Positions 12,263 to 42,956 of a stretch of DNA of 64,000 bases are shown one piece after another. The DNA comes from an uncultured Gammaproteobacteria bacterium (lineage in GTDB: Bacteria > Patescibacteriota > Patescibacteriia > UBA11705). Where the stretch lies: positions 56,237-120,236 of the forward strand of contig CAYPSS010000001.1 of NCBI GenBank assembly GCA_964413735.1. Reading direction: 5' to 3'. The notes beneath the pieces are model-generated. The model worked only from the letters and a program-made list of their open reading frames with translations, was not told the origin of the DNA and did no database searches. How positions within the stretch are numbered: position 1 is the first letter of the stretch; every line of letters begins with the position of its first letter. A program made the position numbers and the translations under genes.

Positions 12263-12658
12263 TTATCGTCCGGCAGTTCCGGTTGCTTCTGTTAATCTTG
12301 AAACCACAAAGTTGGTAATCCCATAAGCGGCCAAAATAATCACCAAACCAATAATGGCGTTGGTTAAATATTTTTTACCTTGTTCCACCCCATCTTTTTC
12401 ACCACCGGCAGTCATATACTTAAACCCGCCAATAATAATCATAATCACCATCACCACGCCCAAAAAACTTAAAATAATATTAATGATTCGACCAATAATT
12501 ACCGGCAAATCATCTGATGGAGTTTCCCCTGGACCATAAATTCCTTCACCGGTATTTACTAAAGTCCCTTGAATGTCCACTTGGGCCAAAACGCTTGGCG
12601 CCACAAGCAAGAGACAAACCAGCAACCCAAGGAAATACCCGAAAAGTTTTGTCTTCAT
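12263..12658 (-). CDS. Small secreted two-TM pilin-like protein (TrbC/VirB2-type T4SS pilin-like family), paralog 1
   Basis: 131 aa; Sec signal peptide, short variable region, conserved C-terminal block IIGRIINIILSFLGVVMVIMIIIGGFKYMTAGGEKD...AIIGLVIILAAYGITNFVVSRL shared by 8 tandem paralogs. Confidence 0.5.
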   Translation of the reverse strand: MKTKLFGYFLGLLVCLLLVAPSVLAQVDIQGTLVNTGEGIYGPGETPSDDLPVIIGRIINIILSFLGVVMVIMIIIGGFKYMTAGGEKDGVEQGKKYLTNAIIGLVIILAAYGITNFVVSRLTEATGTAGR

Positions 12659-12691
12659 AATTTTATTATGTTAATTATTTATATTTAATTA

Positions 12692-13087
12692 TTAATCAAT
12701 TAAATAAGCTGACTCCATTAATCGTCTTACCACAAATGAGGTAATAGAATAAGCCGTCACACAAATTACCAGGCCGATAATCGCATTGGTAATGGTTTTC
12801 TTGGCTTCCTCTAATTTGGTTTTATCCCCTTCGGCCGTCATATATTTCACCCCGGCCAAAATAATGAGCACCATCATCACTACCGCTAAAACCGCCAAAA
12901 CAATGGAAATAATTCGACCAATCACGGCCGGCAAATACGGCGCGTCCGCATGTCCGTAACTTTCATTACCAAAAGTACCCATGGCATTACCCGCTTGTTC
13001 CTGCAAAGAACTGGCCGCCAAAACTTCCCCGCCTAGAAAAAGCGCGAAAATTAATAGCAAAGTAATTAATATTTTTTTATTAAACAT
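12692..13087 (-). CDS. Pilin-like two-TM protein, paralog 2
   Basis: 131 aa; same architecture (VIGRIISIVLAVLAVVMMVLIILAGVKYMTAEGDKTKLEEAKK...IIGLVICVTAYSITSFVVRRL). Confidence 0.5.
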   Translation of the reverse strand: MFNKKILITLLLIFALFLGGEVLAASSLQEQAGNAMGTFGNESYGHADAPYLPAVIGRIISIVLAVLAVVMMVLIILAGVKYMTAEGDKTKLEEAKKTITNAIIGLVICVTAYSITSFVVRRLMESAYLID

Positions 13088-13303
13088 ATGATTAAAAAAG
13101 TAATAAGCAAGAAAGTGCTAAGCGAGATAAGTAAGACAAGTGAGACAAGTAAAACGAGTGAAACGAGTATTAAAAGGGGTTAGGGATAAGGGATTAGGGG
13201 GGCTAGAAAATGAGGGAATAAAAATAAAAACCATATTCTCACTCTGAACTTGTTTCAGAGTCTGTGCTATGATCTGGACAAATAAAAAGATCTATTACAG
13301 TGT
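13088..13303. repeat. Modular intergenic repeat block (gtaag-rich block, G-tract block, 29-bp palindromic element)
   Basis: gtaagacaagtg/aagcaagaaagt motifs at 13100-13170 also found at 21962-22035 and 24150-24215; G4-type motif ggggttagggataagggattaggggggg at 13176-13202; ttctcactctgaacttgtttcagagtctg at 13237-13265 identical to 24428-24456. Confidence 0.7.
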
Positions 13304-13699
13304 CTATGAGGTCGGGGAAATTAAAGCATTAATCAAAATTTGATTCATTACATAACTGGAAATTGAATACGCGAGCAAAATTATAATAAGGCCAATAATA
13401 CCGTTTTTGATCCAATCCTTAGCCTTTTCCACTTCATCCTTTTTTCCACCGGCCGTTAAATATTTATAACCACCCATTAAAATAATCACCGTTAAAACAA
13501 CACCGGAAACCACCAATACACCATTCACGATCCGTCCAATCACCACCAATAAATTTGACTCTGTTCCCTCGCCATAAACCGCTTCACCGCCCTGTTGTAG
13601 ATTTTGATTAGCGGTTTCAAAAACATTTTCCGCTTGAACCGACGTAAAAGCGCCAAACAATATTATAGTTAAGATCAAAAAAACTAATACTTTATTCAT
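13304..13699 (-). CDS. Pilin-like two-TM protein, paralog 3
   Basis: 131 aa; conserved block VIGRIVNGVLVVSGVVLTVIILMGGYKYLTAGGKKDEVEKAK. Confidence 0.5.
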   Translation of the reverse strand: MNKVLVFLILTIILFGAFTSVQAENVFETANQNLQQGGEAVYGEGTESNLLVVIGRIVNGVLVVSGVVLTVIILMGGYKYLTAGGKKDEVEKAKDWIKNGIIGLIIILLAYSISSYVMNQILINALISPTS

Positions 13700-13709
13700 A
13701 TTGCTTTAA

Positions 13710-14090
13710 TTATTGTTGAACATTTATTATCAATTGAATCACTTGAGTGGAAATCGCGTAAGCCAAACCAATAATAATTACGCCGATAATACTGTTGGTT
13801 AAATAAGCTTTGGCCTTGGTAATATTCTTAGAATCTTCACCGGCGAGCATATATAAGACTCCACCATAGATTATTAAAATCATTAAAACAAAACCAACCA
13901 AAGCCAGTACCCCATTAATAATGCGTCCCACTAACAATGTCAAATTGCCAGAGGCTCCAACATCAAATCCGGAAGCATCAGCAGTTGCATTTAATCCGGT
14001 GTCACTGGGTTCAAAAGCAATTACTGTCGTGATTCCCAGAGTAAAAACTATAATTAGTAATAAGAAACTGAATACAAATATTTTTTTCAT
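13710..14090 (-). CDS. Pilin-like two-TM protein, paralog 4
   Basis: 126 aa; conserved block LVGRIINGVLALVGFVLMILIIYGGVLYMLAGEDSKNITKAK. Confidence 0.5.
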   Translation of the reverse strand: MKKIFVFSFLLLIIVFTLGITTVIAFEPSDTGLNATADASGFDVGASGNLTLLVGRIINGVLALVGFVLMILIIYGGVLYMLAGEDSKNITKAKAYLTNSIIGVIIIGLAYAISTQVIQLIINVQQ

Positions 14091-14095
14091 AAATT

Positions 14096-14524
14096 TTATT
14101 TCATGGTTTGTGATCCCAAAAGATTAATAACATAATTGGCAATCCCATAACTCAAAGCAATCAAACCAAGGCCCAGCGCCGCATAAATAATGTAATTTCG
14201 TCCGGTACTAACCTTGTCCGAATCGCCACCGGCAAGCATCCAAGTTAATCCGCCATATAAAACCAACACAAAGAAAATCACGCCGACCATGGATAAAATC
14301 GCTTTGATAATATCACCAATTTTATTTTGTACCAATACTTGACCGTAAGCACCTTCCGAACCTTCTGGTAATAAATTGGCCGTCTTGGCGGTTTCGTCCA
14401 ACCCTTCGGTAATAGACTTAGCCGATACCATAAAACCGAAAAAAAACATTACTAAAATGGCGATTATTGTAATAATTTTTATTTTCATAATTGCTTCCGC
14501 TGAATTCAAAAAATTTAAATTCAC
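14096..14524 (-). CDS. Pilin-like two-TM protein, paralog 5
   Basis: 142 aa; conserved block IGDIIKAILSMVGVIFFVLVLYGGLTWMLAGGDSDKVSTGRN. Confidence 0.45.
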   Translation of the reverse strand: MNLNFLNSAEAIMKIKIITIIAILVMFFFGFMVSAKSITEGLDETAKTANLLPEGSEGAYGQVLVQNKIGDIIKAILSMVGVIFFVLVLYGGLTWMLAGGDSDKVSTGRNYIIYAALGLGLIALSYGIANYVINLLGSQTMK

Positions 14525-14562
14525 CGGAAGCAGCGGATATCAATCCGCTACTTTATAAAAAA

Positions 14563-14937
14563 CTAAGTACCCATGGTTGCTTCCATCAATCGACTGATAA
14601 CAAAAGTGGTGATAGCGTAAGCACTGAGAATAATCACCAAGCCGATAATACCGGAAATAATGTATTTTCGCGCATTATCAATTTTTTCTTGCGCTCCACC
14701 AGCCGTCATATACTTGAAACCACCGATCAAAATAATTACTACCGCCACAACGCCCAAAAAGCCCAAAGCCACATTGATAATGGCACCAACTGTTGTTCGA
14801 ATGTCTTTTGAACCTAGGATCAACTCATTTCCAATGGCATCAGTTCCAAATGGATCGTTTATTTGCGCCATAACCGGCATTACCAAAGAAAACGCAAAAA
14901 CCGCCACCACCAGAAACATTGTTAATTTTTTTAACAT
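14563..14937 (-). CDS. Pilin-like two-TM protein, paralog 6
   Basis: 124 aa; conserved block VGAIINVALGFLGVVAVVIILIGGFKYMTAGGAQEKIDNARK. Confidence 0.5.
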   Translation of the reverse strand: MLKKLTMFLVVAVFAFSLVMPVMAQINDPFGTDAIGNELILGSKDIRTTVGAIINVALGFLGVVAVVIILIGGFKYMTAGGAQEKIDNARKYIISGIIGLVIILSAYAITTFVISRLMEATMGT

Positions 14938-15011
14938 TTTTTTTTAGTTATTTATTAAAATTTGTTTATATATATAGCGACCTTTGGTTGTTTATATTAT
15001 AGCAAAATTCA

Positions 15012-16544
15012 TTATAATTTTGAAATAATGAAGTTGAGGACAGAATAACTAAGGAAAATAGCCGCCAAACCCAAAATGGCCCAAAGGAAAGTATCCTTGG
15101 CCTCTGTCACCTTTTTCTTATCGCCACCACTGAACATATAACTCAGTCCACCATAAACAAAAATTGCAAAAGCAACCGAGCCAATAATACCAAAAACATA
15201 CTTTAATAATTCTCCAATAATCAAGGGCACACTTTTCCCTGTACCAACCAAACCAGAGGAACTAAACTTCTGAATTTGCGCCACCATATCATTATACAAA
15301 GCCGTCCCCTTGCCTTCTTCGCCACCTATTTTTGGCGCCTCAGCTTTTAACTCATCACACTGCGCTTCTCGTTCGGCAATTTTGGTTTGGTCATCAAAAG
15401 CCGCGGCCGCTTCTTTACATTTTAAAAGTGCCGCCGCCTCGGCCGTTGTTGCCGATATTTCATTACAACTATTTCTTAAATCCTCAATATTATTAGAAGT
15501 TTCTGATAATTCCAAACATTTATTTTTAATTTTTGCCACAATATCCGACATCCCGATACCTAAATTTTTTACAGTTATACTGGCCTGACCACCCCAACTT
15601 GATTTAACACTTATCAAAGCTCCGCCTGATAATCCTCCAGTAATCGTAATGGTCTTACCATTATTACTACTAATACTAACAACTGATGATGATGATGTTT
15701 CCCAAGTAAAAGCAGTTTCAACTCCAACATTTTCAAAATTACTGGAAGCGGTCAATTGGATTTGTTGATCGTTGTTTATTGAAACTTCATTATTCGTAAC
15801 AGTAATTTCTGCTGGTAAAATCATTTGTAAAGAATCTTTTTGTGGAAACATCGCAAAATCTCCTCGCACATAACTATAAGCATCATTACATGATTGGGTT
15901 GGTTCAAATTCCAACAGTGAATCATAGAGGTAATTTGCCTGTTCCACCATAGGATAATTTTCAGCATGATTATAAGTAACCATCTTAAGGTAAGCGGCCC
16001 AAATACTAGAAACTTCTGAAAAGCTTTGAGCTTTTTGTAAATTTTCTTTTAAGCTGTTACTAAGCTCTGAATCAATATTTAATACCCCCTCAACAATAAC
16101 TTCTTTATCATATTTGGAAAAATTATTAGGAGAAGCAATATAAATTAAACGTTGAGGTATTGTAGTATTAAAAACTGCACAACCACGATATTCTTTATAA
16201 TCCACCTCGGTTTTTGATTTACTATTAGGGAATCGGGTAAAACAGAGATCTTTATTGATACTTGCTTCGGCAATTAAATCCCAAGTATATCGATTATAAT
16301 AATCAACAAATAAACGTTCCGGTGATTGGCGATATTCATTGGTAAAAGTATTAAAACAAGAATTAATACATTCTGTTTCAGAAGTGGCATCAATCAAGGA
16401 AGTTGAATCTTTGGTTACAGCAAAAGATTCCCGATCTGCATCAGCCACCTTCAAATAACAACAACATTTTGTCGCCTGAGCAACCGACAAATCAAAAATA
16501 AAAAAACTACAAACAATAATTAAACCGATTAAATATTTTTTCAT
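15012..16544 (-). CDS. Large pilin-like family member: signal peptide, Cys-rich region, Big_2-like Ig domain, coiled coil, C-terminal two-TM pilin module (putative tip/adhesin pilin)
   Basis: 510 aa; C-terminal LIIGELLKYVFGIIGSVAFAIFVYGGLSYMFSGGDKKKVTEAKD...LGLAAIFLSYSVLNFIISKL matches the neighbouring small paralogs; Ig-like segment AFTWETSSSSVVSISSNNGKTITITGGLSGGALISVKSS. Confidence 0.5.
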   Translation of the reverse strand: MKKYLIGLIIVCSFFIFDLSVAQATKCCCYLKVADADRESFAVTKDSTSLIDATSETECINSCFNTFTNEYRQSPERLFVDYYNRYTWDLIAEASINKDLCFTRFPNSKSKTEVDYKEYRGCAVFNTTIPQRLIYIASPNNFSKYDKEVIVEGVLNIDSELSNSLKENLQKAQSFSEVSSIWAAYLKMVTYNHAENYPMVEQANYLYDSLLEFEPTQSCNDAYSYVRGDFAMFPQKDSLQMILPAEITVTNNEVSINNDQQIQLTASSNFENVGVETAFTWETSSSSVVSISSNNGKTITITGGLSGGALISVKSSWGGQASITVKNLGIGMSDIVAKIKNKCLELSETSNNIEDLRNSCNEISATTAEAAALLKCKEAAAAFDDQTKIAEREAQCDELKAEAPKIGGEEGKGTALYNDMVAQIQKFSSSGLVGTGKSVPLIIGELLKYVFGIIGSVAFAIFVYGGLSYMFSGGDKKKVTEAKDTFLWAILGLAAIFLSYSVLNFIISKL

Positions 16545-16547
16545 ATA

Positions 16548-16913
16548 TTATTGCGTGGCAATAGCCGATATTACCACTTTCAAAATTATTCCCCCACCCA
16601 GAACAATCAAAAGGCCGATAATAGCGTAAACAATCGTGTCCTTAGCTTTTTTAATAAAATCCGGTTTAGCCCCACCGGCAATATACATGAGACCACCGGC
16701 CACCAAGGCCACCAACGCCAAACTTCCGGAAATACCTAAAGCAAAAGTAACGATGTTAATTACCGTTTCCTCGAAAACCGTCAGATTACAGGTAGTTAAA
16801 CTGCCGGTTTTGCATTCGGTTGGCACCAAGCCTTGGAAAGTCGCACCCTGCGCCTGAAAACCAAAACCCATCAATATCATCATCAAGCTGAAAATTAAAA
16901 TTTTATTTTTCAT
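16548..16913 (-). CDS. Pilin-like two-TM protein, paralog 8
   Basis: 121 aa; conserved block FALGISGSLALVALVAGGLMYIAGGAKPDFIKKAKD. Confidence 0.45.
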   Translation of the reverse strand: MKNKILIFSLMMILMGFGFQAQGATFQGLVPTECKTGSLTTCNLTVFEETVINIVTFALGISGSLALVALVAGGLMYIAGGAKPDFIKKAKDTIVYAIIGLLIVLGGGIILKVVISAIATQ

Positions 16914-16920
16914 ATTTAAT

Positions 16921-18363
16921 TTATTTCATGGTTTGCTGAACTTTTTGCACCGCCAAATCAATCACTTGTCGTGAAGTAAACTCACCGGTTTGCAAAGAAT
17001 CAATCATTTCTTGAAATATTTTTTCCGTTGCCGGTTGGTTTTTTCCACGATACCAAGATTTAGCGGTCAAAGTTTGTTCTACGAAAACCGCGACCGCATC
17101 ATTTTCCAATTGTTTATCATACAAGGAGCGCAGGGCGGTTGGCTTTTGAGTCTTCTCCAAATACTTTTCCGCTTGTTTTTGCTCGGTCATAAAACGAATG
17201 AAATCCCAAGCATAATTTTTGTTCTTTGATTTATTGGAAACACTATGCACCCAATAATTGGCATAATTCAATTCTTCATAACCTTGAACTTGTAACATCG
17301 GCGCAATATCAAAGTTTAATTTTGGCGCTTGAGAAACAATAATCGGACGATGATAAGCATAACCCAAAAAATAAGCGGACTTACCATCAATAAAAGCCTT
17401 TAATGAATTATCCATTTTGTTATTCCAAGTATATGATTTCAAAATCGGATCCGCAAAAGAAGCATAAAACTCCAAAGCATTGATGGCCGGAGCCTTGGTA
17501 ATTTCCGGCTGTCCGGCTAATTCACGAGGAATACGATGAAAATTAACATTTCCCGCTTCATCTACCATTTCCGCTTTTAATTGCATCATCAATAACGACA
17601 AAATATCAAAACTGCGTTCAATGTTGGTCGATGTCCCCAGCGGGATTCCGGCTAACAAAATATTATTATTGTTATCAACCCGTCTGATTTTCTCAATCTG
17701 TGATTCAAGCTCCGTCCAATATTGCGCCGGCAAAGGAATTTTCGCATTATTCAAAATATCTTTATTATAATACAAAGCCAAAGTATCTAAACTTAAAGGC
17801 AACCCGAAGACTCGATAATTCCACTTGGGATCATTTTCCGTGCCATCATTATAGCGCCACACCACATCACGCGAAACCGTATCCCCAAACATGGTTTCAA
17901 TTTGTTTGGGCGTATACATTTTTTGTTGTTGAATCACTATTCGCTCTTCTTGTTTAACCGTTCCGGTCACAATTTTAAAAGGTAAATTCACCGAAGCCGG
18001 CATTGGTTCCAATAAATTAAGATATTCATTAACCCAAGTATTATGCAAAGAAAAAATATCCGGGCCTTGATCCAAAGCAAAGGATTTAATCAATTCATCC
18101 TTGTATTCTTCCGGTTTCAACTGTTTAAACTCAATTGAAACATTGGGGTGCAAGGCGCGATAATCATTAATAATTTCATTATATGCTTCGCGCGTATCAT
18201 GCACTGTCCAAAAAACCAATTTTACCGGAGTTAATGCGCCCGTTTCACCTTGTTTAGAACAACTTAATCCGATCGTCGTAAACATGACCACCAAAAGAAA
18301 CAAAGACATTATTCGAATTTTTTGTTTTTTATTAGATAAAATAGCCCGAATGATTTTATTCAT
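16921..18363 (-). CDS. Lipoprotein extracellular solute-binding protein (ABC transporter SBP family 1, sugar-type)
   Basis: 480 aa; signal peptide with lipobox-like GLSC; overall SBP_bac_1 style composition; no permease genes adjacent. Confidence 0.6.
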   Translation of the reverse strand: MNKIIRAILSNKKQKIRIMSLFLLVVMFTTIGLSCSKQGETGALTPVKLVFWTVHDTREAYNEIINDYRALHPNVSIEFKQLKPEEYKDELIKSFALDQGPDIFSLHNTWVNEYLNLLEPMPASVNLPFKIVTGTVKQEERIVIQQQKMYTPKQIETMFGDTVSRDVVWRYNDGTENDPKWNYRVFGLPLSLDTLALYYNKDILNNAKIPLPAQYWTELESQIEKIRRVDNNNNILLAGIPLGTSTNIERSFDILSLLMMQLKAEMVDEAGNVNFHRIPRELAGQPEITKAPAINALEFYASFADPILKSYTWNNKMDNSLKAFIDGKSAYFLGYAYHRPIIVSQAPKLNFDIAPMLQVQGYEELNYANYWVHSVSNKSKNKNYAWDFIRFMTEQKQAEKYLEKTQKPTALRSLYDKQLENDAVAVFVEQTLTAKSWYRGKNQPATEKIFQEMIDSLQTGEFTSRQVIDLAVQKVQQTMK

Positions 18364-18367
18364 ATTT

Positions 18368-19237
18368 TTATTTTAAATTCAAACTGCGAAGGTATTTACG
18401 AAATTCATTTTTTACATCTTGATGTTTCAAAGCAATTTCAATATTAGCTTTCAAATAACCGAATTTTGAACCAGTGTCGTAATATGTTCCATCAATCAAG
18501 CGCGCATAAACCGATCGTTTTTTCATTAATTTAATAATGGCATCCACCAACCAAAGCTCGCCACCCTTGCCCAAAGTTGTTGATTCCAGCGCTTCAAAAA
18601 TATCCGGGGTTAAAATATAACCGCCGATTGATCCCAGCAATGATGGGGCCTTTTCCGGTCCCGGCTTTTCCACCAATTTTTTCACTTCAAAGACATCGTT
18701 GCCCAAACTTATTCCATCAATCACTCCATAACGTTTTGTTTCCTGTTTAGTAATTTGTTTGACCGTTAATACCGGATCACCGTATTTATTAAAAGTATCA
18801 ATCAGTTGACTTAATCGTGTTTTTTTCTTTGTCACCCAAAATTCATCACCCCAAACCACCGCAAACGGTTCATTGCCAATCAAACTCTTGGCACACAAAA
18901 CCGGGGTTCCATTTCCATACGGTCCTTTTTGACGAATAAAAATGAAATTCGCCATATCCGCAATTTTCTTGATTTCATCACGTTCTTGTTCTTTGCCAAC
19001 ACTTTTCAAATAATGCTGAATTTCAAAGTTATAGCTAAAATGATCTTCCACCGCTCGTTTACCGCTACCGGTGACTAAAATAATATCTTCGATTCCCGAA
19101 GCCACCGCCTCCTCTACCACATATTGAATAATCGGTTTATCTACAATTGGAAGCATTTCCTTTGGTTGTGCCTTGGTCGCCGGCAAAAACCTGGTTCCAT
19201 AACCGGCCACCGGAATTACAATTTTTTTGATTGCCAT
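18368..19237 (-). CDS. galU: UTP--glucose-1-phosphate uridylyltransferase
   Basis: 289 aa; IKKIVIPVAGYGTRFLPATKAQPKEMLPIVDKPIIQY N-terminal signature, VEKP...GGYIL. Confidence 0.85.
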   Translation of the reverse strand: MAIKKIVIPVAGYGTRFLPATKAQPKEMLPIVDKPIIQYVVEEAVASGIEDIILVTGSGKRAVEDHFSYNFEIQHYLKSVGKEQERDEIKKIADMANFIFIRQKGPYGNGTPVLCAKSLIGNEPFAVVWGDEFWVTKKKTRLSQLIDTFNKYGDPVLTVKQITKQETKRYGVIDGISLGNDVFEVKKLVEKPGPEKAPSLLGSIGGYILTPDIFEALESTTLGKGGELWLVDAIIKLMKKRSVYARLIDGTYYDTGSKFGYLKANIEIALKHQDVKNEFRKYLRSLNLK

Positions 19238-19371
19238 AATAAATAAAACTTTTAGGAATAGCCCTTTTTATCAAATTTATCGTATTTTTATTATAGCACA
19301 AATAATCAAATGCGCCCAAAAAAAATACCCACATTAAAAGGTGAGAATAAGTTTTTTATTTTCTTGAAAAT

Positions 19372-20583
19372 TTAACCGTTTTTCAATGCATATTGCCAAA
19401 TCTTTTCCGCAACATTTATGGGTGCTCCCTGCGTTGGGAAATGATGCATATCAATATAAGGTAAAGTGTTGTTTTCCAGAAAAATAAATGATTGGTCTTG
19501 ATAATGTTTTTTTTCATCTTCACAAATAAAGTCTAGGCCACAAACAACGGCCGACAAAGATTGTGATACCTTTTCACAAAGATTTTTGGTTTCCGGATGT
19601 AATGATTCCGTCACATTAACAATTTCCGCCCCCGCCCCAAGCGTGATTTTTTGTCCTAAAACAATTTTTTGGCCCATCGATAAAACATCATCCAGCCTTA
19701 ATCCGAGAGAATTTAAATAAATTTCCAAATCATCATTAACTTCAATTTGATGTAAAGTGGCATCACGTCGCTGTTTTGGCAAACGCCAAGGATGTTTATT
19801 ATAATTTGCAATTAAACTTTTAATAGTGTTTTCACCATCACCGTAAATAGTGGCCGGCATTCGCTTGGCACAAGCCACCATTTGACCATCAATCACCACT
19901 GCGCGATAAACATGACCAATTGCGAAACGCTCGACAATCACCTTGGCGCTGATTTGTTTGGCGATTCTCAAAGCCTGATCAAAATCTTCCCAACTTTTAA
20001 TCTGAAAAAAAGCATGGCGACTGAGTGATGAATCATTGGGCTTTACCACCAAAGGAAAACCGATTTTCCGGCCAAAAGTTTTGGCTTTTTTTATCGAAAA
20101 AAATGATTGCCCGGGAGCAATCGGCCAATTATTTTTTTCCAAGACTTTTCGGAAATATTCTTTGGTATCCAGATTTTTGCTTTGGGTGACAATATCAAAC
20201 AAAGGTAATTCCTGGAAATATCTTGTCTTACCTTGATTATGCCAAGAAAAAAATGATAAGTATGATTTATTTTTATTTTTCAATTGATAAGCTCTGATAT
20301 CCAATTGTAATTTTTTCGCTTCATCCCAAATAACCAAAGTTCGATTATAAAACTGCCTTCGATCAATTTGCGAGGTGACTTCCACCAAATCAAATAATCT
20401 CAAAATAAAAACCAAAAAACGAATAAACAAAATGTCAATTGATTCAATGATTCTTTTTGGAAAAAAATTAGTGAACCTTTCCGCCAATGGATCAATAATC
20501 AAAGTTTCCAAATAAGAAACCATCTTATCATGCCAATGATTTTCCTCTAACGGATAGCAATGGGGACACTTTTTATTTTTCAT
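19372..20583 (-). CDS. ATP-grasp ligase, CphA-like C-terminal ATP-grasp with about 190-aa N-terminal extension
   Basis: 403 aa; C-terminal half parallels the 74..1042 protein (MPATIYGDGENTIKSL, GAEIVNVTESLHPET, LENNTLPYIDMHHFPTQGAPINVAEKI). Confidence 0.55.
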   Translation of the reverse strand: MKNKKCPHCYPLEENHWHDKMVSYLETLIIDPLAERFTNFFPKRIIESIDILFIRFLVFILRLFDLVEVTSQIDRRQFYNRTLVIWDEAKKLQLDIRAYQLKNKNKSYLSFFSWHNQGKTRYFQELPLFDIVTQSKNLDTKEYFRKVLEKNNWPIAPGQSFFSIKKAKTFGRKIGFPLVVKPNDSSLSRHAFFQIKSWEDFDQALRIAKQISAKVIVERFAIGHVYRAVVIDGQMVACAKRMPATIYGDGENTIKSLIANYNKHPWRLPKQRRDATLHQIEVNDDLEIYLNSLGLRLDDVLSMGQKIVLGQKITLGAGAEIVNVTESLHPETKNLCEKVSQSLSAVVCGLDFICEDEKKHYQDQSFIFLENNTLPYIDMHHFPTQGAPINVAEKIWQYALKNG

Positions 20584-20664
20584 AATAATTAAAAAATATC
20601 ATGCTCCGATAAATAAAGCAAAAACATCCTTAATCAGGATGCTTTTTATTAAATTATATAATTG

Positions 20665-20913
20665 CTATTTTTTCCCGGTTAACATTTTAATAAAACCGGC
20701 TAATTCATGGGCCAGCATACCAATGCGAATCATAATATAAACACTGATCAAGCCAATCACAAAAAAAGTTATTGCCACCAGGAGATTTAGAGTAAAAGGA
20801 TAAAGCAAAATCAAGACCGCCAAAGCAAACAAAAACAAAGCTAGTAAAAAGAAAAACAAAATGATTTCAAAAATCAACTTGCGCACTGTATGATAAAGAT
20901 TACGAATTTCCAT
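20665..20913 (-). CDS. Small two-TM membrane protein, hypothetical
   Basis: 82 aa, hydrophobic; terminator hairpin (catcct...aggatg plus T-run) at 20600-20640. Confidence 0.35.
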   Translation of the reverse strand: MEIRNLYHTVRKLIFEIILFFFLLALFLFALAVLILLYPFTLNLLVAITFFVIGLISVYIMIRIGMLAHELAGFIKMLTGKK

Positions 20914-20976
20914 ATTTTTATTTTTATTTCATTTTAATTATATCATAAATAATGGAATTCAACCAAATAACCAATT

Positions 20977-21033
20977 GACAAATCAATTAAATCAGTTAAA
21001 CTTTTAATGGTTCCTTTCACTTTCAGGGAGGGG
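20977..21033 (+). promoter_or_regulatory. Putative sigma70-type promoter (TTGACA-16nt-TAAACT) and strong Shine-Dalgarno AGGGAGGGG for the Nudix gene
   Basis: TTGACA at 20977-20982; SD at 21025-21033 immediately upstream of ATG 21035; leader shares ttaatggttcc...cagggaggg with the leader of gene 28068. Confidence 0.4.
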
Positions 21034-21034
21034 C

Positions 21035-21757
21035 ATGGGAAAAGAAAGCCATACTAACAATTCGCCATCAGTTTGTTCAACTTTGGTTGTTGATTGTGTG
21101 GTTACCAGTCTCTATCGCACAATACCATTGATTGGATTAATTACGCGGAAAAAGTATCCGTATGCAGATCGTTATTGTTTGCCGGGCGGACATTTTGATG
21201 CCGGAGTCTGGAATCAGGAAAAACAATGTTTTGAAATGAACTCACAACATGGTTGTGACTTAACGATTGAACAAACCGCTTCCCGAGAATTGGCTGAAGA
21301 GGCAATGCTTTGTGTATCTCCGGATGAATGGCAATTTCTAATGTTTTTGACTGCTCCCAATCGTGATCCGCGACCTGATATGCGACGCTTATCGGCCGTT
21401 TTCTGGAAAGATTTCAGCTCATTTTCCTCTTTACTTCTTGGTAAGGCCAACAGTGACGCTGCCTCGTGGACAATAACAAACTTAATGTCATTGACGGAAG
21501 AAGTGATGGGCTTTGATCATTGGCTGGTAATTCAAAAGTTGCAAAAGCATTGGGCGGAAACAGCAAGAACTTGGTCTTTTGATGGTTTCAAATATGTTCA
21601 TAAATGCAATGAATTATTCCATGGTTTTGGTGAAATTTGGCGACATCCCAATGCCAATGAAGCTTACCATAGCCATAGTCATAATACTGTTTTACAACCA
21701 ATTAAATTCTGCCCCGGTTGTGGTAAAAGTTTGACACTGCCAATCATTAACTTTTAA
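21035..21757 (+). CDS. NUDIX-family hydrolase-like protein with C-terminal CxxC extension
   Basis: 240 aa; Nudix-box-like segment LPGGHFDAG...TIEQTASRELAEEAML; GC content visibly higher than surroundings; strong SD. Confidence 0.5.
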   Translation: MGKESHTNNSPSVCSTLVVDCVVTSLYRTIPLIGLITRKKYPYADRYCLPGGHFDAGVWNQEKQCFEMNSQHGCDLTIEQTASRELAEEAMLCVSPDEWQFLMFLTAPNRDPRPDMRRLSAVFWKDFSSFSSLLLGKANSDAASWTITNLMSLTEEVMGFDHWLVIQKLQKHWAETARTWSFDGFKYVHKCNELFHGFGEIWRHPNANEAYHSHSHNTVLQPIKFCPGCGKSLTLPIINF

Positions 21758-21764
21758 TAAGCGA

Positions 21765-21791
21765 AAATCTTACCAACGGTAAGATTTTTTT
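21765..21791 (+). terminator. Rho-independent terminator after Nudix gene
   Basis: aaatcttacc aacg ggtaagattt hairpin followed by TTTTTTT. Confidence 0.6.
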
Positions 21792-21799
21792 AATCCAAG

Positions 21800-22040
21800 T
21801 AATTTTCCTCATGTCATTGCAAGGATTTCCGTGAAACAGTCCGCCCCACCTGTCATTGCGAGGAGCGAAGCGACGAAGCAATCTAAAGGACTAGTGGGCA
21901 AAGCTTTCCCTTAGATTGCCACGAGATTTCAATTCTTGAAATCTATCGCAATGACAGGAAAAACTTACCACTTTCCCACTTGTCTTACTTACCACTTACA
22001 ACTTTCTTGCTTAATACTTTCTTGCTTACTGCTTGCTAAA
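21800..22040. repeat. Modular intergenic palindromic repeat block (inverted copy of block at 24140-24420)
   Basis: cctgtcattgcgagg...tcgcaatgacagg and gcaatctaaagg...ccttagattgcc internal palindromes; 21826-21867 is the reverse complement of 24325-24362; gtaag-block at 21962-22035 is the inverse of 24150-24215. Confidence 0.7.
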
Positions 22041-22043
22041 AAA

Positions 22044-23228
22044 TCAAAGATACTTTCGGTTTCTCAATTTATCCGGTAAATAAGTTTGCTTGGAGCTATC
22101 CTCCTTTGGTGTATATTTATATCCTTTACTATAACCTAATTCCTTCATTAATTTAGTTGGGGCATTTCGCAAATGAAGCGGGACCGGCAAATTGCCATAT
22201 TGCTCGACATCACGACCGGCTTTTTCAATCGCTTCATAAGCAGTAATATCTTTTTTGGAATTTGATAAATAAATCACACATTGTGTCAAATGCACGCCAC
22301 ACTCAGGCATCCCCAATTTATGACAAGCATCAAAAACCGCATTGGCTAAAAGTAAAGCGGTGTTATTTGCCAATCCAATATCTTCCGAGGCAAAACGCAC
22401 TAAGCGCCTCGCAATATATAGAGGATCTTCACCGGCTTTGAGCATTCGCGCCAACCAATAAACCGCCCCATTGGCATCGCCACCACGCATTGACTTATGC
22501 AAAGCGGAAATTATATTATAATGTTCTTCCCCGTTTTTATCATACATTAAAGCGGTTTTTTGTAATATTGTTTTGACGGTTTCAGCCGTAATTTTATTAC
22601 TGTGTTGCGCACATAATTCCAAAGTATTTAGAGCGATACGCGCGTCACCATTAGACAAAGACGCCAAAAGCTCTTTGGTTTTTTTATCAATTTTAATTTT
22701 TTGAGCCCCCAGCCCGCTGACTTCATCATGCAAAGCACGATCAATAATTTTTATTAAATCCTCCGGCTCCAACTTATTCAAAACAACGATACGAGAACGG
22801 GAAAGAACCGCTGAATTAACTTCAAATGATGGATTTTCCGTTGTCGCGCCAATTAAAATCAATAGCCCTTGTTCCACAAAAGGTAGCAGTGCATCTTGTT
22901 GCGCCTTGCTCCAACGATGAATTTCATCAACAAATAAAATGGTTTTGATTTTAAGTCGACTGCTTTGTTTGGCTCGTTCCACGACGGCCAGCAAATCTTT
23001 TTTTCCACTGGAGACGGCACTTAATTGCACAAATTCCGAATTGGTTTGCTGAGCAATAATTCTCGCCAAAGTGGTTTTCCCGGTTCCGGGTGGCCCCCAC
23101 AAAATCATCGAAGGAATATTATCTTCTAAAATCGCTTGACGCAAAAAAGACTTAGGGCCAATAATTTGTTCTTGGCCAAAAAACTCCTCTAATTTTGTTG
23201 GACGTAAACGATCCGCTAATGGTGGCAT
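22044..23228 (-). CDS. rarA: Replication-associated recombination protein A (AAA+ ATPase RarA/MgsA)
   Basis: 394 aa; [19 protein letters not shown] Walker A, VDEIHRW Walker B, conserved C-terminal RarA helical domain motifs. Confidence 0.85.
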
Positions 23229-23328
23229 ATTTGTTATTTAGGGGGCTAATCTTGTTGCTAATATCTTAGCACTAATTTTTTTAAATTCAAAAAAATCCTC
23301 TGTTAGAGGATTTCGAATTAAAGATTAA

Positions 23329-23520
23329 TCACGAACAACGACGCAAACGTGGGTTGGCCTTGGGAAATTGAGGCGAATCAGCGCGTCCCCGAGAATGACG
23401 TGGAATTTCCTTCTTATCCGATTCATCATCCGTATCCACCACTTGTTGGGAAAAATGCTTGACCACCACTTCACTTTGTTCCTCGGGCAACAACTTGTAT
23501 TCAGGACGCTTCCAAAACAT
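23329..23520 (-). CDS. Small acidic/basic hypothetical protein (63 aa) with strong SD and own terminator
   Basis: AAGAGGAGGG SD 4 nt upstream of ATG; terminator hairpin aatcctct gtta gaggatt plus T-run at 23290-23320; GC-richer than surroundings. Confidence 0.4.
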   Translation of the reverse strand: MFWKRPEYKLLPEEQSEVVVKHFSQQVVDTDDESDKKEIPRHSRGRADSPQFPKANPRLRRCS

Positions 23521-23554
23521 CAGCCCTCCTCTTTAAAGGGAATAGACTATTATG

Positions 23555-24130
23555 CTATTGATCAATCATTCCTTTTTTCAAGCAATTATTATAATAACAG
23601 TAATCGAAAATATCACGAGAAATCGGAAAAGCGGCAAACAAAATCGCCAACAAGAAGATATGGCTAAACACAAAATCACAAGCACCTAGAAAATTCATTG
23701 ATTCACTTAAGATCATATCAGCCAAAAATGCCAGCCCGAAAATGAAAACTACTTGAATAACAACAAGGGGCAAAACAATTGAATCATTTTTCAAAATCAC
23801 CACCTCATCTTTCATGCTGGAAGAACTAAAAAGCCATTTTTGGGTGTCATACCACCTGGCCCAAATCAAGACAATGGCAATAATCGCAAAAATTGGGAAC
23901 TTTGGCCCCAAATAATAATAATCTGACATTAAATAACCAATCATAACAATCGCTGTCACAACGGTAACACCAAATTGAATCATGGGGTAAAAAGCCCGTT
24001 TGCCTTTTCGCCAACGATAATATTGATAAGAAAAAATGCCCATCAGTAATCCTAAAAAAATATTTAACAAAATCAATAAAATTGGCATTTCGCACCTCAC
24101 TTTTGTAAAGAACCAAAATAAAATTATCAT
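23555..24130 (-). CDS. Multi-TM membrane protein, hypothetical (paralog of 24543..25202)
   Basis: 191 aa; shares YYYLGPKFPIFAIIAIVLIWARWYD-type block with the downstream paralog. Confidence 0.45.
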   Translation of the reverse strand: MIILFWFFTKVRCEMPILLILLNIFLGLLMGIFSYQYYRWRKGKRAFYPMIQFGVTVVTAIVMIGYLMSDYYYLGPKFPIFAIIAIVLIWARWYDTQKWLFSSSSMKDEVVILKNDSIVLPLVVIQVVFIFGLAFLADMILSESMNFLGACDFVFSHIFLLAILFAAFPISRDIFDYCYYNNCLKKGMIDQ

Positions 24131-24139
24131 ATCAAATAT

Positions 24140-24460
24140 TGATTGTCAATAAAGTGGGTAAGGGAGTAAGCAAGAAAGTTGTAAGTAGTAAGTAAGACAA
24201 GTGTGACGAGTAAGAAAGTAAAAAGTTTTTCCTGTTATTACGAGAGGTTTCACTTTGTGAAACCTCGTGGCAATCTAAAAGAAGTCTTTCCCAAAATTAT
24301 TTTAGATTGCCACGTCGTTCCGTTTCACGGAACTCCTCGCAATGACAGGTGGGGTGGACTGTTTCACAGAACTCCTCACAACGATCCTCTTTGTCTACAA
24401 AACGAGGCGAGCAAACAGGACGTAATTTTCTCACTCTGAACTTGTTTCAGAGTCTGAGTT
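24140..24460. repeat. Modular intergenic repeat block (gtaag-rich block, palindromic block, 29-bp element)
   Basis: Reverse-complement copies of motifs at 21800-22040; ttctcactctgaacttgtttcagagtctg at 24428-24456 identical to 13237-13265. Confidence 0.7.
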
Positions 24461-24542
24461 AAAAATATACAAAACCACGAATGTACGAATTATCGAACTT
24501 TGAATATAAAAAAACCTCGACCTTGTCGAAGTTTGAAATTAT

Positions 24543-25202
24543 CTATGGGAAGTTCGGCTCATGCTTTTTCTCCTGCAAGTGTTTCTCCAATTTTTGTTGT
24601 GCTAAAAGGAAAACGCGCCATTCAAAAATATTACGCGACAGATCAGGGAACATCATAGCAATGGCCATTGAAAGGGTCGCAAAAGCAATAACAAAGTCAA
24701 TGCTTTTCAGAATACTATCAAACGGATAATCAAATTTTACCCAAACATTATAAACAATCACATTAACCATGGTCCACAGAATAAGAGCAAAACCAATCCG
24801 TAAGAAAATCTTTGTTTTACTCAGGAACAAAAACTCCAACTGCTGACGATCTTTTTCATTTTCAATAATAACTTGATTATTAACCACGGTCATTTTTTTA
24901 TTCAACCAAACCAGACTTTCATAGCGTCTAAGATGAATAAAAATTAAAGCAATCAAAACAGTAAAAATCGACCTTGGGCCAAGATACAAATAATCGGAAT
25001 GAAAATATTCGAAACATAAAAAAGCCGTTATGCAAACAATCTGAACAAACACTGCATCAAACAAGGTTTTTTCACCCTTTTGGTCATGTTTTTTTTTCAA
25101 AGCCGAAGATACAACAATGCCAATCGAAAGAAGAATCACCATACCTAAACGCAAAAGAACCTGATAATTGTCCATCATTGCCCCCTGGTTGTAAAGGAAC
25201 AA
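24543..25202 (-). CDS. Multi-TM membrane protein, hypothetical (paralog of 23555..24130)
   Basis: 219 aa; DYLYLGPRSIFTVLIALIFIHLRRYE block. Confidence 0.45.
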   Translation of the reverse strand: MFLYNQGAMMDNYQVLLRLGMVILLSIGIVVSSALKKKHDQKGEKTLFDAVFVQIVCITAFLCFEYFHSDYLYLGPRSIFTVLIALIFIHLRRYESLVWLNKKMTVVNNQVIIENEKDRQQLEFLFLSKTKIFLRIGFALILWTMVNVIVYNVWVKFDYPFDSILKSIDFVIAFATLSMAIAMMFPDLSRNIFEWRVFLLAQQKLEKHLQEKKHEPNFP

Positions 25203-30201: not shown

Positions 30202-30292
30202 CCCGCACAAGCGTGGGCGGAAGAGTCCCAAGTAACGAAAAACGGTACGCAACGCGTACCGCTTTTTTAATAGAAGAGCTTATTCAAAATGT
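30202..30292. repeat. Direct repeat copy B (degenerate duplicate of gene 28068..28508 3' end and terminator)
   Basis: Retains coding remnant ...PHKRGRKSPK-stop and the cggtacgcaacgcgtaccg hairpin. Confidence 0.75.
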
Positions 30293-30708
30293 TCTATAGT
30301 AATTTTATTCAAATCACCATTAATAATAATCGGCTTCACTGCTTCAATTTCAGTTTTGCAATAAGGCATTTCAGGAATGGGGTTTAACATAAATATTTTT
30401 TGATTCAGAACATGGGCAAAGCCAATTTCCATTAGAGTATTTCCACCAACATAATTTTTTATCCCATTCTTATCAAAATTTAATACCAGCACCGCATCAG
30501 CCCCTTGCATCATTCTCCAAAATTCACGGATAGCGTCCATGTTATTCTTTTGGTGAAGTTTAATAGTTTCAATTTCCTCCTCGGTTTTTCCCACCATTGT
30601 TTTGTGCAAGTCCGTCAAAAAGGCCTCGTGTCCCAATTCCCGAAGTTTTTCGCGGTACTCCAGCATTTGATCTGTAAATTGCATTGATCCAATTATTCCT
30701 ATTCGCAT
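30280..30708 (-). CDS. Nucleoside 2-deoxyribosyltransferase-like protein (PF05014-like Rossmann fold)
   Basis: 142 aa; MRIGIIGSM N-terminus and ADAVLVLNFDKNG...GGNTLMEIGFAHVLNQKIFML matching the D-x-GT-x-E-hGYA catalytic-glutamate block of the NDT family. Confidence 0.45.
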   Translation of the reverse strand: MRIGIIGSMQFTDQMLEYREKLRELGHEAFLTDLHKTMVGKTEEEIETIKLHQKNNMDAIREFWRMMQGADAVLVLNFDKNGIKNYVGGNTLMEIGFAHVLNQKIFMLNPIPEMPYCKTEIEAVKPIIINGDLNKITIEHFE

Positions 30709-30936
30709 AAGAAAGATTTTAAAAAATTTGTAATTTCGCGTAATGTTTTGGTGTATCTAATGTTTCGCGAAGTGTAGGCAAATTTTTGCCTTTTATTTAT
30801 TTTCTTCGATAAATATTATGATTATTTAGTTTCCCAGATTATTCACAAAAATCTGCTTATTTTTATTTAATTTTCCCCCATTTTTGGCGAAGGGTAGAGG
30901 GGTTAGGGATGAATGCCCCGAAGCCAAGACTCCTTA

Positions 30937-31698
30937 TTATAATCTGTTCATCTGATTCAATATTTCATTCGCGAGATCTCGTTTGTCTATTAAATATTCG
31001 TCCCATTTGTTTGATTCTTTTCTCTTTCGTCCGGCAACAAACCCAAGCATTTTTTCGCCTTGTAATTTGTTAGACAATTTCAAAAAATCAGGCGCAGGCA
31101 CAAACCAAACATAATCCCATAAATCGCCTTGCTCTGTATCAAAAAAGCAAAACACCAAAGCCATTGAATATCTATCAACCACACTACTGGCTTTTGCTGT
31201 GGCGGTAAAAATATCGTCAGGGTTATCGCCAAAACGACTTTTGATTTGAATATACATTGTTTTCAAACTTTCTTTTCTTTTCACGATTAAATCAATGCCT
31301 TCGTCATCGGAAATCGGTTTGTAGCAAGAAAGAGTTGTATCGCCGTAAAGTGTAACGAGCTCGGCGATTCTGGCTTCGGCAATGTCTCCTTTTTGTTTTG
31401 AAGAAACATCTTTGGAAATTGTGTATTTCTTTTCTTCTTTTTCCGCTTCTTTTGCTTTTTCTGGTTCTTTGTAGTCGGGATTTAAACCAAAAGTGCTTGG
31501 GGCAGTTTTGATAAATCGAGATTTATCTTTTTTGGAATTTATATCAACGACAAGCTGGGCGTTCATGGTCGCTTCGGGTGTTTTTCCGGCGGTTTTTAGC
31601 CAGCCATGATCCAGCGCAATTTTTGTGATTTCTTTGCTGTGAAGTGGTTTGCTGGCTTCTTTTAAAATTTGATATGCAAGTTCTTTGAATGAGTTCAT
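30937..31698 (-). CDS. HARE-HTH (winged helix) N-terminal domain fused to restriction-endonuclease-like (PD-D/ExK) C-terminal domain
   Basis: 253 aa; N-terminus ELAYQILKEASKPLHSKEITKIALDHGW...RFIKTAPSTFGLNP typical of HARE-HTH; C-terminal D-x(n)-GIDLIVKRK-like D/E-x-K block. Confidence 0.45.
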   Translation of the reverse strand: MNSFKELAYQILKEASKPLHSKEITKIALDHGWLKTAGKTPEATMNAQLVVDINSKKDKSRFIKTAPSTFGLNPDYKEPEKAKEAEKEEKKYTISKDVSSKQKGDIAEARIAELVTLYGDTTLSCYKPISDDEGIDLIVKRKESLKTMYIQIKSRFGDNPDDIFTATAKASSVVDRYSMALVFCFFDTEQGDLWDYVWFVPAPDFLKLSNKLQGEKMLGFVAGRKRKESNKWDEYLIDKRDLANEILNQMNRL

Positions 31699-39378: not shown

Positions 39379-39638
39379 TAAAATGTGAACAACTGATAAT
39401 TTTTCGTTTATAAGTTTGGGATTAATCAGAACCCAATGTGCACAAAAAAACAGAAAATAACAACAATATTTATTTTTGCTCATTCACCAACAAGGAGTAA
39501 ACAATGATAATAACAAGTGGTGTTAATAGAATTTCCGCTAATTTAAGAAAGGAAAAGCACTTATCCCAATTATCAACACTATTATTATTGTTATTTCTTA
39601 TATATATATTGTGTTTTAATTAATATAATAGGCCTTCT
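39379..39638. promoter_or_regulatory. dnaA-dnaN intergenic AT-rich region with DnaA-box-like sites (possible DUE / second oriC half)
   Basis: TTATCCCAA 39561-39569 and TTATCAACA 39571-39579; long A/T tract 39590-39640. Confidence 0.4.
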
Positions 39639-41621: not shown

Positions 41622-41738
41622 TTTTTCTCCTTGTTAAGGAACGAAGAACTATTGATTTTATTATAATTTGAGATTTTTGTCAATATTGAGAATGATTATT
41701 TAAAACAAAAGAGCAGTGAAATAATTCACTGCTCTTTA

Positions 41739-42146
41739 TGGTGCCGCGCCCGCCCCGCACCCGAAGTGGTGCGGGGAGCCGGAATCTCACGCGCTCGCAA
41801 CGACCTTGCTCGCTTCAAAAGGGGGATTCCTCCCCCTTTTGGGAACCCCTATCATTACAGATGGGAAACTCCCGTTTCCCATACCCTTCCCGTTCGATTC
41901 CGGATTAATAAAAAAACAATCCTTCTTGCGAAGAATTGTTTTTGGTGCCGCGCGTGCCCCGTACCCGAAGTGGTGCGGGGAGCCGGAATCTCACGCGCTC
42001 GCAACGACCTTGCTCGCTTCAAAAGGGGGATTCCTCCCCCTTTTGGGAACCCCTATCATTACAGATGGGAAACTCCCGTTTCCCATACCCTTCCCGTTCG
42101 ATTCCGGATTAATAAAAAAACAATCCTTCTTGCGAAGAATTGTTTT
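41739..42146. repeat. Two tandem 204-bp repeats, each beginning with a copy of the tRNA-Leu 3' end (CGCGGCACCA / AGCCGGAATC) interrupted by a GC-rich hairpin
   Basis: Units 41739-41942 and 41943-42146, about 97 percent identical, abutting the 3' end of tRNA-Leu(UAA); each contains a terminator-like hairpin plus T-run and a T-arm-like GTTCGATTCC box; ORFs 41766..42185 and 41806..42201 are repeat artefacts. Confidence 0.8.
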
Positions 42147-42234
42147 TGGTGCCGCGAGCCGGAATCGAACCGGCATGGAGTATAAGTCCGCTGGATTTTA
42201 AGTCCAGTGCGTCTACCAGTTCCGCCATCGCGGC
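42147..42234 (-). tRNA. tRNA-Leu (anticodon UAA), type II with long variable arm, CCA encoded
   Basis: GCCGCGATGGCGGAACTGGTAGACGCACTGGACTTAAAATCCAGCGGACTTATACTCCATGCCGGTTCGATTCCGGCTCGCGGCACCA; cloverleaf folds with anticodon loop CTTAAAA. Confidence 0.85.
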
Positions 42235-42237
42235 ACG

Positions 42238-42471: not shown

Positions 42472-42480
42472 ATATAGATT

Positions 42481-42880: not shown

Positions 42881-42956
<76 letters not shown>

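Follow-up and report, generated by a model that had tools for sequence, protein, structure and literature searches.

The 64,000-nt window analyzed here (hereafter, the window; all coordinates are positions within it) comes from an uncultured bacterium of the candidate phyla radiation (CPR), is AT-rich with a G+C content of ~36%, and holds three intergenic regions, A, B, and C, filled with repeated modules. Region A (13094-13264, read over 13088-13303) lies between two T4SS-pilin paralogs of an array of seven tandem T4SS_pilin (PF18895) paralogs (12263-16913, all on the minus strand), one of which (15012-16544) carries a fused Big_2 domain. Region B (21811-22037, read over 21800-22040) lies between a NUDIX gene (21035-21757, plus strand) and an MgsA gene (minus strand), and region C (24150-24456, read over 24140-24460) between two minus-strand genes; the flanking gene pairs are unidirectional at A and C and convergent at B. 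From our analysis, it is very likely that these three spacers are intergenic mosaics of unstable tandem arrays and degenerate hairpin units, the latter of the kind known as CGTC-tagged repetitive extragenic palindromes (REPs) and Ssn-related motifs (SRMs).

When the arrays are read with the pyrimidine-rich strand up (minus in A and C, plus in B), which at all three sites is the sense strand of the upstream gene, the module order is identical, namely, a hairpin (H unit; A and C only), a middle slot, which holds a palindrome (P units) in B and C and a heptamer block in A, and then a CT array. A MAFFT alignment of the three regions put A wrongly, and the modules were compared by eye and by pattern search instead. 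A preliminary description of this DNA had proposed that the three spacers are made of common sub-blocks; this was borne out, as the modules occur far above chance and the strings it quoted are all present. The 29-mer TTCTCACTCTGAACTTGTTTCAGAGTCTG occurs twice in identical form, at 13236-13264 (not 13237, as first given) and 24428-24456, which was matched in 0 of 100 shuffles. The string CCTGTCATTGCGAGG is found at 21849 (plus) and 24335 (minus), with degenerate partners at 21944 (minus), 24231 (plus), and 21810 (plus), giving 5 matches where the shuffles led us to expect 0.63. Similarly, GTAAGTAAGACAAGTG is found in all three regions (3 matches vs. 0.29 expected), and AAGCAAGAAAGT has four exact copies in the three regions (5 matches with at most one mismatch vs. 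0.57 expected). Each of these three strings is about ten-fold over the shuffles, and the matches are almost all within the three regions. The string GCAATCTAAAGG alone showed no excess over chance in the window (9 observed vs. 6.8); its four in-element copies are the inner stems of the palindromes.

Both copies of the H unit (13236-13264 and 24428-24456, plus strand) have an 8-bp stem ACTCTGAA/TTCAGAGT, a CTTGT loop, a CTG tail, and a TCTC tag, and the first copy folds as DNA with -6.1 kcal/mol (z -2.8). Over 120 stretches of metagenomes and over 114 of genomes contain the 22-nt core of this hairpin without a mismatch; among the matches listed, the hosts include Bacteroidota, Ignavibacteriota, Spirochaetota, Elusimicrobiota, Caldisericota, Melainabacteria, and Sphingomonadales as well as Falkowbacteria and Gracilibacteria of the CPR. 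When 220 distinct contexts of the core were compared, the bases outside the query proved to be conserved both upstream (Y 89%, G 95%, T 98%) and downstream (C 92%, T 88%) with the further flanks unconserved, and the H unit can therefore be written as yGTC-A-CTCTGAA-CTTGT-TTCAGAG-T-CT. The TCTC tag of the window copies is one substitution from yGTC, with C replacing G at the position that is 95% G elsewhere, and the stem starts with A,C, where most relatives of H start with A,T. Because the same G-to-C change is present in both copies, they are copies of one another and probably poor substrates for the nucleases discussed below; with their tags mutated, they are probably relics.

The middle slot of regions B and C is occupied by the long imperfect palindrome already noticed in the preliminary description; both dimers have strong DNA folds. 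In region B, the P dimer (21850-21957, plus; -31.8 kcal/mol, z -5.5) consists of two convergent units with tags outward, a left unit (21850-21886, plus) containing a widely shared 32-mer and a right unit (21911-21957, minus) with a nested 9-bp hairpin and a GAA loop. The P dimer of region C (24232-24348, minus) adopts a four-way-junction fold (-39.9 kcal/mol, z -8.8) and consists of units at 24302-24348 (minus) and 24232-24278 (plus), each with a nested hairpin. A decayed solo P unit precedes each dimer: the one in B (21811-21850, plus), with the linker AGTCCGCCCCACC, matches CCTGTCATTGCGAGG with 2 mismatches and is 88% complementary to 24333-24384, its partner in inverted copy I2, and the one in C (24348-24385, minus), with the linker AGTCCACCCCACC, is an inverted copy of 21814-21865 (I2). 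In fact, a single composite of ~230 nt underlies both B and C, which are paralogs in opposite orientation; their arms (I1-I3) are 76-89% complementary. A composite transposon bounded by these inverted copies was considered and dropped, since the genes enclosed are MgsA and small hypothetical genes, found in the same order in another strain, and no transposase is among them.

The four P units of the window start with CTGT(C/T)AT and end with GCAATCTAA, the tag being TGTC in three of them and TGTT in the fourth, and have a 5-bp outer stem (ATTGC/GCAAT) around an interior of 18-28 nt. One unit has the canonical interior GAGGAGCGAAGCGACGAA; in the other three, a hairpin of 7-10 bp closed by three loop nucleotides (GAA, TTT, and GAA) is nested inside, and between B and C these hairpins show two base-pair differences, both compensated. 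The 32-mer of the P arm, GTCATTGCGAGGAGCGAAGCGACGAAGCAATC, was 100% identical on a Methylosinus trichosporium plasmid and 90-97% identical in Methylocystis, Aulosira, Halomonas, and a Helicobacter canis prophage (BLAST against plasmids and phages), and was found exactly in 27 more stretches in an IMG/VR scan. Canonical P elsewhere is a long hairpin, CGTCATTGCGAG[GAG]CGAAG[CGA]CGAAGCAATCCAG-loop-CTGGATTGCTTCGCTTCGCTCGCAATGACG, and the canonical hairpins CGTCATTGCGAG...CTCGCAATGACG carry the tail AATCCAG; canonical copies thus end with CCA(G), and the window units end with CTA. P occurs elsewhere also as solo arms and as back-to-back arms.

The second material of the three spacers is tandem arrays. 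The CT array of A (13094-13169, minus) consists of 9-nt ACTYGTYTY units followed by GCTTAGCACTTTCTTGCTTATTAC and reaches the start codon of the pilin paralog 12692-13087; within it, in the stretch first described as a gtaag-rich block, Tandem Repeats Finder reported periods of 9 and 18 at 13120-13169. On the gene-sense strand, the 9-mers read ACTCGTTTC, ACTCGTTTT, ACTTGTCTC, and ACTTGTCTT. The CT array of B (21964-22037, plus) is of strain-variable length, and that of C (24150-24225, minus) ends at the -35 hexamer TTGACA of the promoter of gene 23555-24130. Both ACTTGTTTC and ACTCGTTTC coincide exactly with loop regions of H-type units (CTGA-ACTTGTTTC-AG), and strain variants of the CT array include the unit head TGTCATGCT. 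As the 9-mer equals the loop region of H-type units, the CT arrays may be slipped or decayed unit DNA. A lineage-specific pattern, AAGCAAGAAAGTN{2,30}TAAGACAAGTG, gave 0 matches in a scan of the genome collection. In other genomes, tandem arrays of truncated units with periods of 13-23 nt are found beside intact units; such arrays lie within 100 nt of 10.5% of units as against 2.7% of random positions, an imperfect control because most random positions are coding. Falkowbacteria-type loci (L190, L046, L051, L055, and related ones; L-numbers are labels of the compared loci and strains from public assemblies) carry arrays with a 21-nt period made of the truncated unit head GTCATCCTGAA and the spacer CCCTACACTC, which suggests tandem amplification of half-units beside the intact ones.

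The heptamer block of region A, GGGGTTAGGGATAAGGGATTAGGGGGG (13176-13202, plus), comprises 3.7 copies of an AAGGGAT-type unit (TAAYCCC in the gene-sense direction), for which Tandem Repeats Finder gave a period of 7 at 13174-13199. The preliminary description had put weight on this block as a canonical G-quadruplex (G4) motif. A four-tract motif is present and satisfies the sequence criterion (four runs of at least three G, loops of 1-7 nt), although its final run is of six G and not seven. The related motif GGGGTTAGGGAT is likewise real as a 12-nt exact match to the start of the block, but it lies at 30899-30910, in the spacer between genes 30280-30708 and 30937-31698, and has three G tracts only; 2 of 100 shuffles reached two matches. 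One could propose that the block has a function as a G-quadruplex, say as a signal for recombination or transcription in the pilin array, and that the repeats are accessory. The canonical four-tract form with loops of 3-4 nt, its being the sole such motif on the G strand of an AT-rich window in a regular-expression scan (the C strand has two, at 41871 and 42075), its identity in a second strain (L281), and its position between two of the seven pilin paralogs would suit this proposal, and a G4 upstream of pilE is what drives pilin variation in Neisseria gonorrhoeae. Nevertheless, we consider the proposal very improbable. The block is a tandem array that occurs in A alone of the three copies, with a palindrome in that slot in B and C, and some four-tract motif was present by chance in 16 of 300 mononucleotide shuffles (~5%). 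The identity in the second strain is no sign of selection because that strain is too close, and the pilin paralogs, 62-71% alike in their repeated segments, give no sign of silent cassettes. The G4 motif therefore seems incidental, a by-product of one 7-nt tandem repeat, and we see no support for a dedicated role.

The preliminary description would have been contradicted by motifs unique to these three loci; in our searches, the units occur in many other genomes. We scanned 1.01 Mb for a generic yGTC hairpin (GTCA, 7 nt, loop, 7 nt, and TC, with at most one stem mismatch) and found 234 units vs. 4 in shuffles. Their stems are many and co-varying (TCCTGAA, TGCTGAA, TTCCGGA, TGCCCGC, and others), and their loops are few (CTTGT, TTTAT, GAAA, and GCTTGAC). 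In a covariation test in which units were picked by flanks and loop only, the seven variable stem positions were 77-95% Watson-Crick paired vs. 12-14% in a shifted control, with compensatory changes giving two to four pair types at stem positions 2, 3, and 5. Neighbouring units are convergent with tags outward in 52 of 83 pairs, at a spacing of 4-46 nt. The units largely avoid long open frames, which contain 8.7% of the units vs. 79% of all bases, and the genes flanking them are unidirectional in 175 cases, convergent in 82, and divergent in 39. Some in-frame copies were seen: an H unit (read as TLKQVQSD) in a 226-aa PD-(D/E)XK-like open reading frame (ORF) of Gastranaerophilales L188 and L232, with a matching insertion in Gastranaerophilales L217 seen at the DNA level only, and unit dimers in the leucyl-tRNA synthetase gene and an IleRS-like gene of Gracilibacteria L210 and L229 (code 25).

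The hairpin sub-blocks can be placed, as degenerate members, in the superfamily of CGTC-tagged REPs and NTS/SRM motifs, and their distribution is multi-phylum. CGTC-tagged REPs, described mainly from Alphaproteobacteria and including the Neisseria dRS3 and the Rickettsia RPE-4 and RPE-6 repeats, carry an unpaired CGTC/TGTC tag (variant CCTC), an 8-9 bp stem that begins with A,T, 4-5 nt of loop, and three tail nucleotides (consensus CCA); most of them form inverted dimers that follow ORFs, and some copies lie inside genes with repair or tRNA-related functions (Di Nocera, De Gregorio and Rocco, 2013, BMC Genomics 14:522; PMC3733652). The H unit resembles them in its unpaired yGTC tag, its A-starting stem, its 5-nt loop, and its short tail, and the family found here in its convergent dimers, its unidirectional or convergent ORF settings, and its in-frame copies in repair and tRNA-synthetase genes elsewhere. 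The uneven distribution of H over several phyla is a further likeness. The differences are that the stem of H is AT-rich (CTGAA), that H occurs in Bacteroidota, Ignavibacteriota, CPR, and other phyla, and that the window copies have the mutated TCTC tag. As judged from its sequence, P fits the head (yGTCATTGC), tail (GCAATCy), and dimer criteria of the family and not the stem and loop dimensions. A literature search with the raw repeat strings and with peptides falsely translated from them brought up primers that have no relation to the repeats, or no match at all.

In Neisseria, dRS3 has been extended to a 28-nt motif, NTS (CGTCATTCCCGCGMAVGCGGGAATCYRG), with degenerate relatives, the SRMs (Chenal et al., 2025, Nat Commun 16:2388; PMC11893778). 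The same study describes SsnA, a 94-aa single-domain GIY-YIG protein of the nuclease family CDD cd10448, which binds the motif only as single-stranded DNA (ssDNA) and on one strand only, does not bind the RNA form, and cuts a few bases upstream of the motif; binding needs the C after the palindrome, cleavage needs the three bases before it, and ssnA genes are typically motif-flanked (PMC11893778). The canonical P copies, with CGTCATTGC...GCAATCCAG, resemble the head and tail of NTS (CGTCATT..AATCYRG), and the SsnA-critical bases, GTC before the palindrome and C directly after it, are kept in the family: the P units have the head TGTCAT and the tail AATC, and the exception to the head is the G-to-C change in the two window H copies. 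Moreover, the H unit is associated with GIY-YIG genes in other genomes (e.g., Bacteroidota), in the same motif-gene-motif layout. With a motif screen followed by jackhmmer, we found 20 single-domain GIY-YIG ORFs in 18 of ~260 H-bearing loci, most of which have H units at a distance of up to 150 nt, on one side or on both; in locus L159, the gene has a unit 13 nt upstream of it and a second one 4 nt downstream. Here, these unit-flanked proteins were assigned to Pfam PF01541. The window differs from the Neisseria system in that it has no motif-flanked GIY-YIG gene and in that its lineage is known here from sequence alone.

We then compared the three regions with independent assemblies, in which the flanking genes are 94-99% identical and yet elements A, B, and C differ. 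In strains L004 and L005, ~36 nt of the array of B are missing and 9-10 nt are gained. In L004, C has a different H-type unit directly adjoining a longer array, which ends at the shared TTGACA promoter. In L281, the G4 block and the array of A are the same, and a further module of ~135 nt is present that is composed of an H-like unit and a second CT array; this module is flanked by ~30-nt direct repeats of the array end and not by a short duplication. Modules are thus gained, lost, and resized at the strain level. Short-read contigs stop exactly at the H unit or within the palindrome, as expected of repeated or palindromic DNA. Next to C, L004 (743-993, vs. 23542-23556 in the window) has an extra 79-aa ORF (~250 nt) between the 191-aa gene and a 63-aa ORF, with neighbouring genes 99% identical to those of the window.

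Such variation between strains, together with the inverted doublets with a short spacer that recall REPINs, could also be read as the work of classical non-autonomous transposons, either miniature inverted-repeat transposable elements (MITEs) moved by DDE transposases or GTAG-type REPINs moved by RAYT (Y1/HUH) transposases. The tag found here, however, is yGTC and not GTAG, no target-site duplication is visible at canonical hairpins, and the extra module of L281 is bounded by ~30 nt of array homology. A jackhmmer search with the E. coli RayT as seed, which is of modest sensitivity, found no RayT-like protein in the unit-bearing loci (1.9 Mb) or in the window itself, as against the 20 GIY-YIG ORFs, and the published analysis of CGTC repeats was likewise without a dedicated transposase (PMC3733652). 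Transposition of this classical kind is, in our view, very improbable. Of the preliminary description's composite MITE/REP-like family, the REP-like part holds, as the elements are modular and dispersed, with units in hundreds of other genomes and modules that are duplicated and rearranged from strain to strain; the MITE part does not, as we found neither terminal inverted repeats with a target-site duplication nor a transposase.

Another reading is that the palindromes and the 29-nt hairpin are structured RNAs (cis-regulatory elements in 3' or 5' untranslated regions, mRNA stabilisers or terminators, or a small RNA) and owe their conservation to a role as RNA. The folds of the palindromes are strong, at all sites the upstream gene has the pyrimidine-rich strand as its sense strand, a U-rich tract follows the H hairpin of A after ~10 nt, and published REPs are mostly downstream of ORFs and may act as RNA (PMC3733652). 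The settings of B and C, however, point the other way. The gene 24543-25202 has an intrinsic terminator at 24506-24534 (minus; terminator scan) with element C downstream of it, and the NUDIX gene is followed by a hairpin and T-run at 21764-21791 (plus; read from the sequence, and absent from the terminator-scan list because it has fewer than three G-C pairs) with element B directly downstream. The promoter of gene 23555-24130 (TTGACA-17 nt-TAATTT) borders C and is kept in strain L004 despite the differing spacer. Because B and C follow terminators and C precedes a conserved promoter, we infer that the elements occupy transcriptionally quiet gaps, behind terminators (B and C) and ahead of promoters.

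The units themselves also speak against an RNA function. Rfam gave nothing relevant for the whole window at gathering thresholds or for 21700-24600 at relaxed thresholds, and these repeats are not accounted for by any annotated structural RNA, an outcome that would have told against the preliminary description. An RNA-type wobble bias in the unit stems was looked for and not seen: G:T pairs make up 0-8%, and G:T mismatches are not commoner than A:C mismatches (11 vs. 8). Among the nested loops are several GAA triloops, a type that favours hairpins in DNA (d(GCGAAGC)-type mini-hairpins). In other genomes, the units are found in both orientations and inside ORFs, and the content of the spacers differs between strains with 94-99% identical flanking genes. 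Finally, SsnA binds the ssDNA and not the RNA form of the related motif (PMC11893778). Taken with these observations, conservation as structured RNA is very unlikely.

If the three spacers are mosaics of REP/SRM-type units and arrays, they would be elements of the same kind as the bacterial interspersed mosaic elements (BIMEs) of E. coli and the Neisseria intergenic mosaic elements (NIMEs). As in BIMEs, NIMEs, and the rhizobial RIMEs, hairpin units of alternating orientation, together with other short repeats, occupy the spacers and change from strain to strain; here it is 9-nt and 7-nt tandem arrays that accompany the units, and the unit family and the host lineage differ. Small dispersed repeats of cyanobacteria, as Elhai and co-workers reportedly described in 2008, form hairpins of 21-27 nt with compensatory changes and nested insertions, and are inserted in tandem heptamers (STRR); those families are said to be confined to one cyanobacterial subgroup, and we liken them to the present elements by description only. 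The elements would be built of two materials, degenerate hairpin repeats (H and P) and short tandem arrays (9-mer ACTYGTYTY and 7-mer TAAYCCC), and the convergent P pairs in B and C could fold into a cruciform of ~110 nt. Since in other bacteria single-domain GIY-YIG Ssn nucleases read such hairpins as ssDNA on one strand and nick a few bases upstream, spread or turnover could proceed by ssDNA nicking and recombination, and also by slippage of arrays or ectopic recombination among them. The elements may persist as selfish or weakly domesticated DNA. We infer the activity of a nuclease on the window copies, the way in which the units multiply, and the origin of the arrays.

Several observations weigh against this interpretation. 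The window units are degenerate, none of them passes the strict generic scan, and only three clusters are visible, all within the window. The published SRM pattern, HGTCWYN(0-2)YYVSBRHN(0-5)WNVSBRGN(0-2)RNCYNB, gave 0 matches in the window, and the canonical H and P units fail it as well; it is matched by the Neisseria NTS. The pattern calls for a GC-rich stem, and the stems of H are AT-rich. P has a 5-bp outer stem with a large interior, in contrast to the stems of 8-9 bp and loops of 4-5 nt of the four published families. No unit-flanked GIY-YIG gene was found in any fetched CPR locus, just as in the window. The derivation of the arrays from unit loops is a matter of sequence resemblance, and the multiplication route of CGTC/SRM repeats is not established in the literature.

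It is conceivable that element A, in which a hairpin unit, a heptamer array able to form a G4, and a slippery 9-mer array come together inside the pilin array, is a hotspot of ssDNA nicking or recombination that diversifies or reshuffles the pilin genes of this CPR bacterium, in parallel with pathogenic Neisseria, where NTS clusters around key genes and pilE has its G4. The hints are slight: public assemblies contain no exact match to the pilin gene directly downstream of A and four to its upstream neighbour, and one strain has the extra module in region A. We regard this idea as a long shot.

With this analysis, three puzzling spacers fall into an established class, and the G-quadruplex no longer stands as a lead. 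It does not overturn current understanding, as the family and its widespread occurrence have already been described and the window is an ordinary new example. It does, however, delineate an AT-rich branch of the CGTC/SRM family whose 22-nt core is identical across at least eight bacterial phyla; because this branch is missed by the published SRM pattern, surveys of Ssn targets probably undercount. The units reach CPR genomes, where they form strain-variable mosaics beside promoters and pilin genes, and they break short-read assemblies at hairpins, which matters for binning and finishing.

The window does contain one single-domain GIY-YIG gene (42238-42471, minus; 77 aa; PF01541 E 2.3e-16; jackhmmer E 7.6e-19), the only nuclease found in it of the class known to act on such hairpins, and its product is 29% identical to the unit-flanked GIY-YIG proteins. 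No H or P unit flanks this gene, and it was dropped as the cognate nuclease, as the gene and its homologs (60-75% identical, in Patescibacteria, Bacteroidota, and Ignavibacteriota; L270-L280) lie in a conserved duplication of the 5' half of tRNA-Leu, with a GC hairpin and without a CGTC unit. In the window, the layout (42147-42578, minus) consists of a displaced 5' half of tRNA-Leu(UAA) (42539-42561) interrupted by a 47-nt GC hairpin (42492-42538), with the intact tRNA-Leu (42147-42234) on the other side of the gene, and looks like a separate mobile GIY-YIG cassette targeting tRNA-Leu. Exact-protein look-ups for this gene and for a Wzy-like gene gave nothing useful. Immediately 3' of the tRNA-Leu, a 204-nt unit is repeated 2.1 times with 98% identity (41735-42156); each copy ends in GGCACCA, which is like a tRNA 3' end, contains GTCGTTGCGAGCG, which is similar to the head of the P unit, and carries one of the C-strand four-tract motifs (41871 and 42075). 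At 42690-42900, an 84-nt unit is repeated 2.5 times with 99% identity, each copy repeating the 3' end of tRNA-Gly (42881-42956); these repeats resemble stacked remnants of attachment sites.

Two further features of the window were noticed. Repeats with a period of ~290 nt (families D1, D3, D5, D7, and D12) extend over 48700-52100 and suggest a long repetitive ORF. The cumulative GC skew reaches its minimum at ~38000-40000, where the main gene strand appears to switch, and this may be a replication origin.

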